DNA of 30,017 bases, from UHGV virus genome UHGV-0128346, one strand, 5' to 3'. Source of the DNA: a virus. Under the pieces are notes generated by a model. That model saw nothing but the letters and a program-made list of their open reading frames with translations. It made no database searches and was not told the origin of the DNA. The first letter of the stretch is position 1; the number at the start of each line of letters is the position of its first letter. A program made the position numbers and the translations under genes. Shown piece by piece: positions 11,459 to 24,702 of this stretch.

Positions 11459-11682
11459 TTTTTTCTACTGCCCTCCTCCCCAGGAAAAGCATTTCATTCT
11501 TTTCTCATTAATCGTTACTGGAGAGAAGGCGGGAAAAAGCCAGCTCTTTGGCCCTAAATAACAGCATGGCTTCAGTCCATACAGAATCTGATTTTCCAGC
11601 TCACATAATAACCAGATGATGCAGTTGCAAAATCTGGCAACATCGGATTATTATGCGCCTGTGAAAATTTCTTCACGTTTTA

Positions 11683-11740
11683 TTCCTTGCCGCCCGTGCC
11701 TCCCAGCGCGGGCTTTTTTATCCAAAAAATACCCCTCCGG
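11683..11740. terminator. Back-to-back intrinsic terminators sharing a T6/A6 tract (plus-strand hairpin ~11683-11704, minus-strand hairpin ~11721-11740)
   Basis: GCCCG...CGGGC followed by TTTTTT on the plus strand; TACCCCTC-CGGA-GAGGGGTA preceded by AAAAAA on the plus strand, i.e. followed by U6 on the minus strand. Confidence 0.6.
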
Positions 11741-12028
11741 AGAGGGGTATCATACAAGGGGATGACCATGATGCATGGTGCCGGGTGCCTCCCGGTGAGT
11801 CCGGCATCAGCATACGAACCCGCGATTATCCCAGAACTGACTGCTGATTCGCCCCGCCGCTTAGGGGGATTCACCATGCGTTTTTTTATTTACAAACTCT
11901 TCGCCAGACAAACAACCATTAACTGGCTGAATTGTGAGGTATTTCAATTTTTAGAAAACTGACCAACCTCCGCTTATACGCCGGGCATGGAGCGGATACA
12001 AAAAAGCCCCGCAAAAGCAGATCAGAAG

Positions 12029-12069
12029 GATTCGTTGTAAAAAAAAAGCTGTCAGATTATCGCGCTAAT
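12029..12069 (-). terminator. Intrinsic terminator downstream of the beta-class methyltransferase
   Basis: Perfect 13-bp inverted repeat AGCTGTCAGATTA-TCGCGC-TAATCTGACAGCT, followed by a T-run of 8 or more on the minus strand. Confidence 0.7.
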
Positions 12070-12319
12070 CTGACAGCTACAGCAGGTATCCAAAAACATG
12101 GGTGGAAACAATAAGTGAGTTAAGAAGACACGGTGTCGGATTTTTACCGATGAGCCGTTGGCGTGGTCAACCGTGACTCGCTTGTATCAACGATGAATTA
12201 ATGAAGCCAATCCTTTGCAGGCTATGTACAACCCACCACATCAGCCCTGCTGCATTGCAGGATACACTGTATCTGTAATCATTATACGGCACAGACATCC
12301 CACCAATAATTGAATTAAT

Positions 12320-20780: not shown

Positions 20781-20942
20781 AGTGACATCCTCATGTGCGA
20801 ATTTTGAAAACTCACCACATGGGACGCCAATCACAGAGGTGGTGAGACGTACAGGGTTGGCGTAACCGGTCGCACATGACCCCGGCGCATCTTTCGATGC
20901 CCCTGCACGCCCCACCATAATTTGGATGTGAGGAAACGTGCG

Positions 20943-20966
20943 CAAAAAAACCGCTGAAGCGCGGTT
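20943..20966 (-). terminator. tR1-like intrinsic terminator in the early-right operon
   Basis: ACCGC-TGAAGC-GCGGT hairpin followed by U7 on the minus strand. Confidence 0.5.
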
Positions 20967-21376
20967 ATGCGCATGTGCGAATTTCAGGACGCCAATCCCG
21001 GCACCCGCTTTATAAGGTGCCTGAACAGTGTAACGTCCCGGAATTGCAGAATCAATATGCTGGTGGTCCTTCACACTCAACAAAATCACGCCTGAATTTC
21101 CACAAAGGACTAAAGCACTCATGCGGGTAGTCTTTGCGAAGATAGATAACGCGCTGTGTTTCTGGCTCCCAACGAATAACATGGACATAAAGCCCTCTTC
21201 CGTCACGAAACCAGCGGTTAAGTTCCTGCACAACTCGCCCCCCACAGTCAGGTAAAGTTCTCTGTGGTTACTTACAGCCAGGTGATTTGGTAATCTGCAT
21301 TCATGCCGTAACAACAGGTGTTCAGCGACGCTGACCACCAGCTGTTGCGACAAACGGTTATTTGCCGTTAAACTAT

Positions 21377-22268: not shown

Positions 22269-22943
22269 ATGAAAACAGTCCATGACATCCGGCGGTCTAA
22301 CGCCAGAAAACTGAGAGATGGTGTTGGCGGGAATTCTTCCTTTGCCACCATGATTGATCGCGAGCCAACCCAGACCAGCAGGTTTATGGGAGATGGTGCT
22401 ACTAAAAATATCGGTGACAGCATGGCACGGCACATCGAAAAATGTTTCGACCTGCCTGTCGGATGGCTTGATCAAGAACACCAGACAACAAACATCACAA
22501 AAAAACCTGATGTTTCAATTACTAACAAACAAATAACGTTAGTCCCTGTCATATCATGGGTACAGGCCGGAGCATGGAAAGAAGTTGGCTATTCTGAGGT
22601 TGATTTGAGCACAGCAGAAACTTATCCCTGCCCTGTACCCTGTGGCGAAATGACTTATATCTTGCGGGTGATTGGTGATTCAATGATTGATGAGTACCGC
22701 CCGGGAGACATGATTTTTGTTGATCCCGAAGTCCCTGCCTGCCACGGTGACGACGTTATTGCATTGATGCACGATACAGGCGAAACCACCTTCAAGCGAT
22801 TGATAGAAGATGGAACACAGCGTTATCTCAAAGCATTAAACCCAAACTGGCCTGAGCCTTACATTAAGATTAACGGTAATTGCTCTATAATTGGTACAGT
22901 AATTTTCTCAGGAAAACCAAGAAGATACAAAATAAAGGCCTAA
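22269..22943 (+). CDS. cI: cI-like prophage repressor (HTH plus S24 LexA-like autopeptidase)
   Basis: C-terminal half matches the S24 fold of recalled P22 C2 and lambda cI (ISWVQAG, GDSM, PGDMIFVDPE, TFKRL, LNPNWP, INGNCSIIG). Confidence 0.85.
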   Translation: MKTVHDIRRSNARKLRDGVGGNSSFATMIDREPTQTSRFMGDGATKNIGDSMARHIEKCFDLPVGWLDQEHQTTNITKKPDVSITNKQITLVPVISWVQAGAWKEVGYSEVDLSTAETYPCPVPCGEMTYILRVIGDSMIDEYRPGDMIFVDPEVPACHGDDVIALMHDTGETTFKRLIEDGTQRYLKALNPNWPEPYIKINGNCSIIGTVIFSGKPRRYKIKA

Positions 22944-22981: not shown

Positions 22982-23015
22982 TTGACAATGTACCATTGAG
23001 ATACATAATGTATCT
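22982..23015 (+). promoter_or_regulatory. PL-like promoter (TTGACA-N16-CATAAT) with overlapping 17-bp palindromic operator AGATACAT-A-ATGTATCT
   Basis: Consensus-like sigma70 hexamers; perfect palindrome across the -10 element; position corresponds to lambda PL/OL. Confidence 0.6.
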
Positions 23016-23462
23016 AAAAGAAACATGCCACAGGCAAGATTAAACAAAATTTGGTTGTAACACGGCGTATGGCACATGCGTCGTTAGCGGTCTGGGGACG
23101 TTAAAGGGGACAATCCACTCCTTGCTCGGGCAAACAAACCAGGTAGCCGGAATGTGCAAGTCAATGATGATGCTGATAAGACGCCTAACCAGCGTGGCGA
23201 TTCGGTTTGACGCCTGGGAAGAGACCAGGACGCAACGATGAGAGCATTGACGAGCAAGGCATAAGTGCTGGTTCAATTCCAGACAGTCCCATTCAGATGG
23301 GAGGGTTGGGCAGGGAAAAGGTCCGTTCGATTCGGACACCGGCAATGCTCTCAGCGTTGTGGTGAATGCGCAGGCTGATGCGCGAAAGACATTGCAGCTA
23401 TTGCGGAAAAGAGCTGTTCGGCGGGGCAATTAAACGCCCGTATCTGGAGGTTAAAGAACAAA

Positions 23463-23738
23463 ATGAAAGTCCAGATTTTAAACAATAGTGGTGAAGTCGT
23501 TTGGTCATACGACATAGCCGCTCCTGTAGATCAGAGCGGCGATAGCTGGACCAATGGGAAACATCAGATTATGGCTGGAGTTGTATTCTCTTTACGCCGT
23601 GCTTTGGAACAGGCTGAAGTCTTTCCATCAGACCCTGAATGGAAATGGCCTTTTTCTATTTGTCCAAATTCGGAGAGTACATTTCAGAAAATTGGTCAGA
23701 AAGTCGCACTCGAAGAGCATCAGCCAACTGTTTCCTGA
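23463..23738 (+). CDS. Hypothetical protein (91 aa), first ORF of the early-left operon; not N-like
   Basis: ATG with GGAGG 13 nt upstream; acidic, no arginine-rich motif; 3' end overlaps the convergent minus-strand ORF by ~83 nt. Confidence 0.4.
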   Translation: MKVQILNNSGEVVWSYDIAAPVDQSGDSWTNGKHQIMAGVVFSLRRALEQAEVFPSDPEWKWPFSICPNSESTFQKIGQKVALEEHQPTVS

Positions 23739-23901
23739 TTTTTTCAGGTAACTCGTCGGCATCGCAGAAACAACAACGCTCGATCATGTTGAAAGCCGAT
23801 TCGTAGAACTGTTTCTGCTGAGTGTCGCTGAGACAGGAAAAGAGCGACGTTACGATGATTTTATTAATTGCATTATCAAGTTCTTTTTCATCAAAAGTCA
23901 T
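23656..23901 (-). CDS. Hypothetical protein (81 aa) antisense to the early-left operon
   Basis: ATG with AAGGA ribosome-binding site at 7-nt spacing; composition looks protein-like. Confidence 0.4.
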   Translation of the reverse strand: MTFDEKELDNAINKIIVTSLFSCLSDTQQKQFYESAFNMIERCCFCDADELPEKIRKQLADALRVRLSDQFSEMYSPNLDK

Positions 23902-24156
23902 TTGATTTTCCTTTTATGTATACGGGCTTAAAAGGATACCACCGAGCCTGAAGTGGTGAAAAGACAGGCACATAACAGCTAAGTATTTTCAACCAGAGAG
24001 AATCCTTAGCGTTGTGGTGAATGCGGCTCAGCGCACGCGGGTTAAGGTTGAGGCTGACAGTCGACCTTCTGTGGATACCCACCCGCCTGGTGTGCAACCT
24101 TCGCTAGGCACCGGGAGGCACCCGGCACCACAAGTTTATGCTGTGTGTAGTCCTGG

Positions 24157-24203
24157 CGGTACCAGTTTGTACCCTTGCTTCCGGCTGGTACCGTCCTTTT
24201 TTG
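24157..24203 (+). terminator. tL-like intrinsic terminator in the early-left operon
   Basis: 9-bp stem CGGTACCAG/CTGGTACCG with a 19-nt loop, followed by TCCTTTTTT. Confidence 0.55.
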
Positions 24204-24339
24204 CAAAACAGAGAAGAGCATCACCGGACGACGGGCTCATAACCCAATCCATCCGGGCGGCTGCCACCGCAGGTGTTCTTCTCTGTTTTGTGGAGAAACC
24301 AACCGACCTTGCAGGGTCGATATGATGAGGAGCAGCAAA

Positions 24340-24702
24340 ATGGCTAGCGAACGCAGTACTGATGTGCAGGCATTTATCGGGGAGCTGGACGGCGGCGTAT
24401 TTGAAACCAAAATCGGCGCAGTTCTCAGTGAGGTCGCTTCCGGTGTGATGAACACGAAAACCAAAGGGAAGGTCTCACTCAATCTGGAAATCGAACCGTT
24501 TGATGAGAACCGTGTGAAAATCAAACACAAACTCTCATATGTTCGCCCAACTAACCGCGGGAAAATTTCCGAAGAAGACACCACCGAAACGCCGATGTAT
24601 GTCAATCGCGGTGGTCGCCTGACTATTCTGCAGGAAGACCAGGGACAATTACTGACTCTTGCCGGTGAACCTGACGGAAAACTCCGCGCAGCAGGTCGTT
24701 AA
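24340..24702 (+). CDS. Hypothetical protein (120 aa)
   Basis: ATG with GAGGAG ribosome-binding site; first gene after the tL-like terminator and just upstream of the yfdQ-like gene. Confidence 0.55.
   Translation: MASERSTDVQAFIGELDGGVFETKIGAVLSEVASGVMNTKTKGKVSLNLEIEPFDENRVKIKHKLSYVRPTNRGKISEEDTTETPMYVNRGGRLTILQEDQGQLLTLAGEPDGKLRAAGR

Follow-up and report, generated by a model that had tools for sequence, protein, structure and literature searches.

The bacterial small RNA (sRNA) STnc100 (Rfam RF02076) is one of the most frequently annotated sRNAs of bacterial genomes but has no assigned function (PMC9029176). It is the same RNA as EcOnc27, or sRNA103, of the Stx2 phage Sp5 in enterohaemorrhagic Escherichia coli (EHEC). 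EcOnc27 gives Northern bands of 235 and 247 nt, the longer form being destabilised without Hfq, and two short convergent sRNAs, AsxR and AgvB, end opposite units of its type (PMC4104026). In one study, STnc100 variants beside stx2 were the strongest genomic predictors of haemolytic uraemic syndrome (PMC12711010). PasD1 and PasD2, two Hfq-bound sRNAs recovered by ligating and sequencing interacting RNAs (RIL-seq) in enteropathogenic E. coli, come from the late prophage region near Q and the holin gene; PasD is abundant in RIL-seq and its stability is Hfq-dependent (PMC8550237). Structural homology of PasD with STnc100 is reported by Zhu, Shabalina and Storz, whose preprint makes no mention of DicF, dicB, kilR or a pseudoknot (bioRxiv 10.64898/2026.05.13.724894). 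In this study, we analyse a 30,017-nt stretch of viral DNA (UHGV virus genome UHGV-0128346; hereafter the window, meaning the whole stretch), an SfV-like lambdoid prophage in which one 22-nt sequence recurs exactly in the early-left and the late region. This 22-mer is the P5 hairpin together with the 3' strand of helix P1 of a folded, pseudoknotted RNA domain, and the domain probably defines the STnc100/EcOnc27 (sRNA103)/PasD family of lambdoid-prophage RNAs. Two complete units of the family are present in the window, a canonical one in the late region and a diverged one in the early-left region. PasD, likened here by its published description, is described in late regions only.

The 22-mer, CACCGGGAGGCACCCGGCACCA, occurs exactly twice in the window, at 24109-24130 on the plus strand and, as the reverse complement, at 11776-11797 on the minus strand. 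An earlier note, made from the sequence alone, had recognised the two identical sites, and exact string search together with shuffling confirms them; its position for the minus copy (~11767-11788) was 9 nt too low. No match appeared in 100 dinucleotide-preserving shuffles, even with three mismatches allowed, and a repeat scan of the window identified the 22-mer as the sole long inverted repeat joining the early-left and late regions. At both sites it is sense to local transcription, the late genes lying on the minus strand and the cI/PL side on the plus strand, and the layout of genes and promoters makes its assignment to the early-left and late RNAs reasonable. The late copy would belong to the late transcript, as proposed, but is not in a promoter-proximal leader, lying 2.7 kb from Q. 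The intrinsic terminator noted after each copy is present at both sites, with a gap of 24 nt each. What had been taken for an autonomous motif is instead the 3' part of a domain of ~125 nt, its CACCA pairing with UGGUG ~100 nt upstream. The late unit is composed as follows.

11720-11908, minus strand: late STnc100 unit, comprising domain, spacer and terminator (Rfam RF02076)
11766-11884, minus strand: late copy of the five-helix domain P1-P5 (own covariance model R1, 101.7 bits)
11869-11879, minus strand: P1 5' strand GCAUGGUG (11879-11872) and the invariant AAU, the strand pairing with CACCAUGC at 11780-11773 (Rfam structure)
11806-11848, minus strand: pseudoknot strands AUCAGCA (11848-11842, in J2/3) and UGCUGAU (11812-11806, in the P4 loop), a 7-bp perfect complement
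11776-11797, minus strand: 22-mer, made up of CA, P5 (CCGGG-AGGCA-CCCGG, 11795-11781) and the P1 3' strand CACCA, with P1 running on to 11773
11722-11751, minus strand: terminator with hairpin 11751-11728 and U-tract to 11722 (terminator scan and fold; part of the Rfam model)

At 114.5 bits (E 1.3e-24), the full-length match to RF02076 clears the curated STnc100 gathering score of 47 bits, and the 22-mer aligns to the best-conserved, upper-case consensus block of the model. According to the Rfam structure, P1 of the late copy is an 8-bp closing helix with CACCA(UGC) as its 3' strand and the 5' strand ~100 nt upstream; the minimum free energy (MFE) fold recovers P1, P2, P4 and P5. The unit resembles EcOnc27/sRNA103 in the 22-mer itself, in the P1-P5 architecture, in the terminator type and in its location, flanked by a moron and the lysis genes and faced by a convergent terminator on the opposite strand (PMC4104026, PMC12711010). 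In EHEC Sakai Sp5 the domain is found ~100 nt downstream of stx2B. An 80-nt peak of Hfq in crosslinking and analysis of cDNA (CRAC) would span the inside of P5, the spacer and the U-tail of that homologue, with an accuracy of about ±4 nt given published coordinates anchored on AsxR (PMC4104026). Family members are flanked by Q, methyltransferase, Stx2A or TerB genes at one end and by nanS-p or holins at the other, and this Q/moron-lysis site is the one described for convergent Hfq sRNAs (PMC4104026). The late variant of the window matches 437 genomes.

The early-left unit, between cI/PL and yfdP-like genes and hence outside the moron/lysis position, comprises the same domain.

23989-24204, plus strand: early-left STnc100-like unit, comprising domain and DicF-like 3' module (Rfam STnc100 alignment)
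24007-24140, plus strand: early-left copy of the domain (R1, 71.4 bits)
24012-24022, plus strand: P1 5' strand UUGUGGUG and AAU, the strand pairing with CACCACAA
24044-24101, plus strand: pseudoknot strands AAGGUUG (24044-24050) and CAACCUU (24095-24101, in the P4 loop), from complementarity
24109-24130, plus strand: 22-mer, with P5 at 24111-24115/24121-24125 and the P1 3' strand CACCACAA at 24126-24133 (string search and R1)
24134-24202, plus strand: DicF-like 3' module, with a single-stranded seed at ~24134-24154, stem 24155-24196 and U-tract 24197-24202 (alignment with K-12 DicF)

Its alignment to STnc100 is full-length in a permissive local search (40.0 bits, E 4.1e-7), below the gathering score of 47 bits, and its MFE fold again recovers P1, P2, P4 and P5. 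The change from GCAU/AUGC in P1 of the late copy to UUGU/ACAA in the early copy is compensatory. A known RNA family accounts for the finding, so no element of a new kind is involved; to that family the early-left copy adds a new member that lacks annotation.

Family-wide comparison establishes the domain as a covariation-supported, pseudoknotted RNA fold. The exact 22-mer is present in at least 120 IMG/VR loci whose flanks are very diverse on both sides, and in nearly all instances UGGUGAAU is found 75-110 nt upstream, pairing with CACCA plus 1-6 further variable base pairs; the domain measures about 110-150 nt across members. To guard against circularity, members were re-ascertained through the 5' motif alone: the exact 22-mer was present in 91 of the true members so obtained and a one-mismatch version in 19, the remainder being one with a 1-nt deletion and one in which the segment was lost by deletion. 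The identity of the 22 nt in the two operons therefore reflects a segment near-invariant across the whole family, and not the regulator-binding site coupling the two operons that had been considered. RNAalifold, applied to an alignment of 27 diverse representatives (A1) from which R1 was built, returned P1, P2, P4 and P5. In a second alignment (A2; 62 R1 matches, 56 distinct sequences), pairing holds in 98% of the cells, both partners change in 15 of the 24 pairs and the covariation score is 0.536, compared with 0.174 for shuffles (0/500 reach 0.536) and at most 0.156 for slid partners, figures that lean towards the fold in that A2 is model-fitted and its sequences are related and non-independent. 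The middle pair of P5 is G-C in 38 and U-A in 18 of the 56 sequences and is never broken; over 154 domains it is G-C in 126, U-A in 28 and never mismatched. The outer P1 pairs alternate between A-U and G-C, and P1 has 7-9 bp in late and SfV-type copies.

The pseudoknot joins J2/3, just 3' of P2, to the apical P4 loop; practically all members keep the two complementary, with differing sequences (for example CUGGUGU/ACACCGG, CCAGUC/GACUGG, CAGUUAA/UUAACUG, AGACUGACAAA/UUUGUCAGUCU and UGCCAGGUCG/UGACCUGGCA). Among 154 unique domains the two strands take 59 different pairs of complementary sequences, and 86% score at least 6 compared with 18% of shuffled loops. It is not in the structure line printed with the Rfam STnc100 model. 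The junctions and loops contribute the invariant AAU, GCGG, CGCGG and AGGCA; ~35 nucleotides of the domain are invariant in all. A CsrA site, a sigma-54 promoter, a kink-turn and a sarcin-ricin loop (SRL) mimic were considered from the sequence and set aside, their motifs being not conserved or out of register.

Compensatory change bears directly on two readings that leave RNA structure out. The earlier note had proposed a cis-acting element of RNA or DNA; the RNA level is upheld by the compensatory changes in P1, P2, P4, P5 and the pseudoknot, and the DNA site is not. As DNA, the 22 bp might be a recombination linker at module boundaries or a protein site kept identical by gene conversion, which would suit the highly mosaic flanks on both sides, the mosaic joints adjoining the element in related phages (~23939 and ~24154) and the presence of the 22-mer at a moron insertion hot spot. 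Set against G-C to U-A exchange in P5, compensation in P1 and the pseudoknot, an orientation strictly along transcription and the conservation of the partner UGGUGAAU ~100 nt away, such a reading is very improbable. A protein-coding reading deserves practically no credence. It is founded on two open reading frames (ORFs) that run through domains and terminators, 11877-11680 (minus strand, 65 aa) and 24014-24325 (plus strand, 103 aa); both begin at (A/G)UGGUGAAU, keep the same frame over the 22-mer, where each reads ...TGRHPAP..., and the early one is annotated in RefSeq as a hypothetical protein. However, domain lengths of 110-150 nt show no 3-nt periodicity, the ORFs cross intrinsic terminators, and the variation consists of compensatory base pairing, not synonymous change. 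In one inspected genome, RefSeq marks the hypothetical protein as frameshifted in a copy of the locus that is 99% identical. The annotation of the 103-aa ORF is probably a systematic misannotation of the RNA element.

The early-left copy of the window differs from canonical STnc100: it is sub-threshold, belongs to the PL operon and carries a DicF-like module in place of the canonical one. DicF (RF00039) and 24134-24202 share UGGCGGUA(U/C)CAGUUU and the overall hairpin, and UGGCGGUACCAGUUUGUAC of the module aligns with UGGCGGUAUCAGUUUUAC of DicF. The terminator stem has 11 bp (24155-24165/24185-24196), the fold z-score of the module is -3.0, and an A/U-rich AAGUUUAUG separates P1 from the seed. 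The Rfam DicF model on 24142-24196 (plus strand) gives 15.7 bits (E 1.5) against a gathering score of 48 and does not reach the threshold. Judging from the homology of the terminator arm and the loop start visible in the alignment, 24134-24202 is DicF-like without being a member of DicF, and the early-left unit is a chimera of an STnc100-type domain and a DicF-type 3' module. Its seed differs from that of K-12 DicF, and the targets would therefore probably differ as well; a DicF-like RNA located upstream of kilR in the Rac-like locus L168 has exactly the seed region of the window (UGCUGUGUGUAGUCCUGGCGG). In the early copy, AAGGUUGA, the pseudoknot 5' strand, may instead pair locally with UCGACCUU (24062-24069), the pairing picked by the MFE fold, and this competing partner is a feature of the early-left subfamily. 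The region 23700-24500 is 98-99% identical to SfV and phage vB_EcoM-720R4, the early-left region being conserved to the same degree in SfV and other phages. Of 5426 complete E. coli genomes, 2687 match a 281-nt query made up of the early-left unit with short flanks (23960-24240), and in 1829 the match covers at least 80% of the query; the element is absent from the yfdP region of K-12 (CPS-53). As a separate observation, a hairpin ACCACCGAGCCUGAAGUGGU followed by GAAAAGACAGGCAC is located at 23934-23969 on the plus strand, just 5' of the unit. It is kept, with loop changes, in other SfV-type loci, occurs also in L168 5' of the DicF-like RNA, and partly repeats, as direct repeats, sequences within the early-left domain.

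A search for GGUGAAU...UGGAGGCACCA brought up at least 120 additional loci whose P5 reads CCUGG-AGGCA-CCAGG, a compensatory exchange of G-C to U-A. In this sister subfamily P1 is GAUGCGGUG/CACCGCAUC, extendable to about 20-22 bp, and the domain is placed directly 3' of the terminator of DicF or a DicF-like RNA, stopping ~25 nt 5' of the Shine-Dalgarno sequence of dicB (MKTLLPNVNTSEG...) or kilR (MIAHHFGTDEIP...), with no terminator after it. The Qin prophage of E. coli K-12 MG1655 has such a copy between dicF and dicB (1649450-1649587; R1 60.2 bits, Rfam STnc100 34.4 bits and sub-threshold), where the extended P1 of ~20 bp reaches from just past the DicF terminator to ~12 nt before the dicB Shine-Dalgarno. 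On these sequence features, the leader between dicF and dicB in K-12 Qin and that of kilR belong to the same fold. Like the early-left copy of the window, the dicB/kilR leaders of Qin and Rac belong to an early-left, repressor-controlled operon with a DicF-type sRNA adjacent. They differ from the window copies in P5 (CCUGG/CCAGG) and in a P1 of ~20 bp. The order differs too: Qin and Rac have the DicF terminator, the domain and then the ribosome-binding site of the division inhibitor, without a terminator, whereas in the window the order is reversed, with domain, DicF-like module and yfdP. In each of three loci (L168, L188 and L212), late-type copies and a dicB/kilR-type copy lie on opposite strands, ~10-12 kb apart, a layout which the window matches. 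No description of the pseudoknot, of the structure between dicF and dicB or of the family's link to the dicBF and kilR leaders was found in the searchable literature.

The arrangement in Qin and Rac is what makes an RNA-processing or stability module of polycistronic prophage transcripts conceivable, with entry points for RNase III in the long P1 and for RNase E. Such a module would free the adjacent DicF-like or EcOnc27-like sRNA and uncouple or dampen the downstream genes. The length of the Qin/Rac-type P1 (~20-22 bp, read from sequence) is expected to suit RNase III, the helix marks the domain off exactly, from the DicF terminator on one side to the ribosome-binding site of dicB or kilR on the other, maturation of DicF needs RNase III and RNase E (bioRxiv 10.1101/2023.04.14.536235), and in the window the A/U-rich AAGUUUAUG follows P1 before the DicF-like seed. 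Nevertheless, P1 of the late and SfV-type copies is just 7-9 bp long, the RNase III site mapped in the dicBF transcript is upstream of DicF and outside the domain (bioRxiv 10.1101/2023.04.14.536235), and recognition by RNase III needs neither an invariant P5 nor invariant junctions, so that we regard processing as the core function as distinctly unlikely.

The terminators offer the next line of evidence. When the 22-mer is followed through related phages, a terminator after it proves usual, since of 157 unique instances at least 137 have one no farther than 160 nt away (median gap 29 nt), but the CCUGG/CCAGG sister subfamily does without. The terminators after the 22-mer fall into more than 10 unrelated types, which speaks against the earlier proposal of an element tied to termination or antitermination; they are interchangeable 3' ends of sRNA-like units. 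Pairing of GGGAGG, as an anti-terminator, with the 5' arm CCUCUC was tried and rejected: the complementarity is limited to the commonest terminator type and missing from many others, and therefore no general anti-terminator design emerges. Comparison across terminator types likewise revealed no conserved anti-terminator pairing with the motif.

Processive antitermination was weighed with the put RNA of phage HK022 as the known precedent. The put element consists of two stem-loops and acts close to the promoter. Like the domain described here, put is a cis-encoded RNA element that occurs in more than one phage operon, upstream of terminators. A role of the domain in modifying RNA polymerase in both operons would agree with its sense orientation in two operons that need read-through of terminators, with the lack of a recognised N homologue among the ORFs scanned around PL, and with strong conservation, as would fit the binding of a conserved host machine. 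Still, we consider this role very improbable. Sequence and structure similarity to put is lacking: blastn-short and motif searches of HK022 22000-34000 gave nothing, nor did R1 match there, and the family is absent, by R1 and motif searches, from lambda, P22 and the HK022 immunity region, the sole lambda match to R1 (15 bits) falling in the ori iterons. Moreover, homologues of the window RNA, unlike put, end at the very next terminator (EcOnc27, PMC4104026), in Qin and Rac the DicF terminator comes before the domain, and the late copy stands 2.7 kb past Q and PR', where polymerase is already Q-modified. A genome-wide scan with a 14-mer returned 80 loci, of which five are true members, all in Enterobacteriaceae (Kosakonia, Pluralibacter, Citrobacter, E. 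albertii and E. coli), the rest being mostly chance matches in high-GC genomes.

Based on the collective evidence, the domain of the 22-mer is understood, with somewhat better than even confidence, as the scaffold of Hfq-associated prophage sRNAs of the STnc100/EcOnc27/PasD family. Each unit consists of a 5' structured domain, a variable single-stranded spacer of 20-30 nt and a Rho-independent terminator. By analogy with the homologues, termination at the unit's own terminator would release a discrete Hfq-associated RNA of ~190-250 nt, and the early-left RNA might be trimmed further by RNase E/III, as is DicF. The variable spacer would serve as the base-pairing region, the invariant pseudoknotted domain as a stabilising or factor-binding scaffold, and the terminator could in addition shield the downstream lysis or early-left genes from unmodified transcription.

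Several points weigh against this sRNA scaffold. The evidence for expression comes from homologues, no target or phenotype of STnc100 is established (PMC12370729, PMC9029176), and the A2 structure figures carry the lean towards the fold mentioned above. The promoter of the late unit is a weak consensus match read by eye (TTGAAA-18-GTTAAT, 11947-11918), and the promoter scan gave no convincing promoter directly upstream of 23989. Some 35 invariant nucleotides and a pseudoknot exceed the needs of a scaffold and suggest a specific partner, a ligand or catalysis. Finally, the position of the dicB/kilR domain as a 5' leader ~25 nt before a Shine-Dalgarno, with a P1 of ~20 bp and no terminator, fits a cis role better.

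Such a cis role, as a riboswitch-like or protein-binding leader controlling the downstream genes, is unlikely overall yet has to be taken seriously. Late and SfV-type units would have the terminator as their output, the dicB/kilR leaders translation or processing. The compact pseudoknotted fold with invariant AAU, GCGG, CGCGG and AGGCA is aptamer-like, and one domain is combined with two platforms, a terminator ~25-30 nt 3' or the Shine-Dalgarno of a toxic gene ~25 nt 3'. The competing local partner of the early-left pseudoknot strand adds to this, as does a feature read from the sequences of several late variants, in which the P1 5' strand is repeated downstream and this repeat could take the P1 3' strand as its partner. 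On the other hand, no conserved, mutually exclusive pairing between domain and terminator was found, the dicB Shine-Dalgarno is not obviously sequestered, late transcription is Q-modified and ignores terminators anyway, and the neighbouring genes suggest no ligand candidate. More generally, we think it rather unlikely that the domain is a new class of pseudoknotted functional RNA, either a cis-regulator sensing a ligand or protein or a catalytic or processing element. If it were, the lambdoid prophages of Enterobacteriaceae would have two such control points, one just before the lysis cassette and one early-left beside DicF-type sRNAs, DicB and KilR, K-12 included, with a terminator or a ribosome-binding site as the output.

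Our analysis adds to the STnc100 family a core defined as a covariation-supported pseudoknotted domain, a sub-threshold subfamily in early-left operons, and the leaders of dicB (in K-12 Qin) and kilR as members of its fold. The domain is modular, combining with different Hfq-type 3' modules, the DicF-like one included. With the fold present in K-12, the role of the domain is therefore testable in the genetically best-understood system.

Around the late unit, the following features provide the context.

15344-14592, minus strand: Q, in the late region, with two small ORFs after it
13381-12320, minus strand: DNA methyltransferase moron, preceding the late STnc100 unit
12047-12277, minus strand: possible degenerate tandem member (12277-12121) with a terminator at 12078-12047, then U9 (R1 15.6 bits, rough E 0.03)
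11692-11713, plus strand: convergent terminator, then T6 (terminator scan)
11298-11011, minus strand: holin, then endolysin and Rz, all on the minus strand

A degenerate third copy of the 22-mer had been proposed in the late leader. The sequence is present on the minus strand (11707-11692), where it is the stem-loop of the convergent plus-strand terminator; it has just GGGAGGCAC in common with the 22-mer, R1 gives no significant match at the position, and the equivalent hairpin in a related-phage locus (L206) reads GGGAGACGC, so the resemblance is not conserved. It is a chance resemblance inside the convergent terminator and no member of the family. The same terminator ends a candidate short convergent sRNA at 11625-11719 (plus strand) with a promoter-like TTGCAA-18-TATTAT (11625-11654), which faces the late unit in the position of the EHEC anti-sRNAs AsxR and AgvB (PMC4104026); a search for AsxR/AgvB on the plus strand opposite the late unit gave no Rfam match. 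The segment 12047-12277, in which a P2-like CCUGC..GCAGG and a P5-like UCGG-UAAAAAU-CCGA can be read from the sequence and whose terminator stem has 13 bp, may tentatively be viewed as a decayed or distinct tandem member of the family. Tandem family copies are common in related phages, with up to six in locus L151.

On the early-left side, the following features precede the unit.

22269-22943, plus strand: cI, with its own terminator after it
22982-23009, plus strand: PL-like promoter TTGACA-16-CATAAT (promoter scan, 11/12 matches)
22982-23026, plus strand: PL-like promoter with operator-like palindromes, ~1 kb upstream of the early-left unit

The ATGTACC..GATACAT repeats at the PL-like promoter are also present in the cI/cro intergenic region. 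Palindromes that overlap the promoter and are common to both sites therefore identify it as PL, and it likely drives the early-left transcript. Downstream of PL, a leader of ~450 nt that holds no ORF is followed by an ORF of 91 aa, a convergent ORF of 81 aa, the early 22-mer and finally yfdP/Q/R/S-like genes. The leader (23016-23462) holds tRNA-like T-arm fragments and a 20-nt long-range inverted repeat (23233-52/23340-59). Its motif GUGGUGAAUGCGCAGGCUGAUGCGCGAAAG repeats the P1-5'/P2 start of the STnc100-like domain and is kept at 90-100% among phages of Klebsiella, Salmonella and Erwinia. Unannotated DNA of P1, P7, D6 and SJ46 matches parts of the leader, as does a 'tRNA-Arg' of Salmonella phage SPN9TCW. 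ARAGORN detects no tRNA in the leader and no tRNA or tmRNA gene anywhere in the window. Given that no N homologue was recognised near PL, the leader could be a structured regulatory one. A further family copy was considered there for a 21-nt repeat (23350-23370) and rejected, R1 giving 6.5 bits and the P1-5'/P2 motif alone being in common.

The convergent ORFs 23463-23738 (plus strand, phrog_3195) and 23901-23656 (minus strand, phrog_3311) overlap by 83 nt and match their PHROGs, both of unknown function, over the full length; the minus-strand ORF occupies the place of sieB-type morons in lambda, P22 and Rac. Lastly, a C4 antisense RNA (75 bits) and an isrK Hfq-binding RNA (62 bits) are located in tandem at 20835-21020 (minus strand), within a called 381-aa ORF, an arrangement resembling the antirepressor control modules immI of P1 and isrK-anrP of Gifsy-1.

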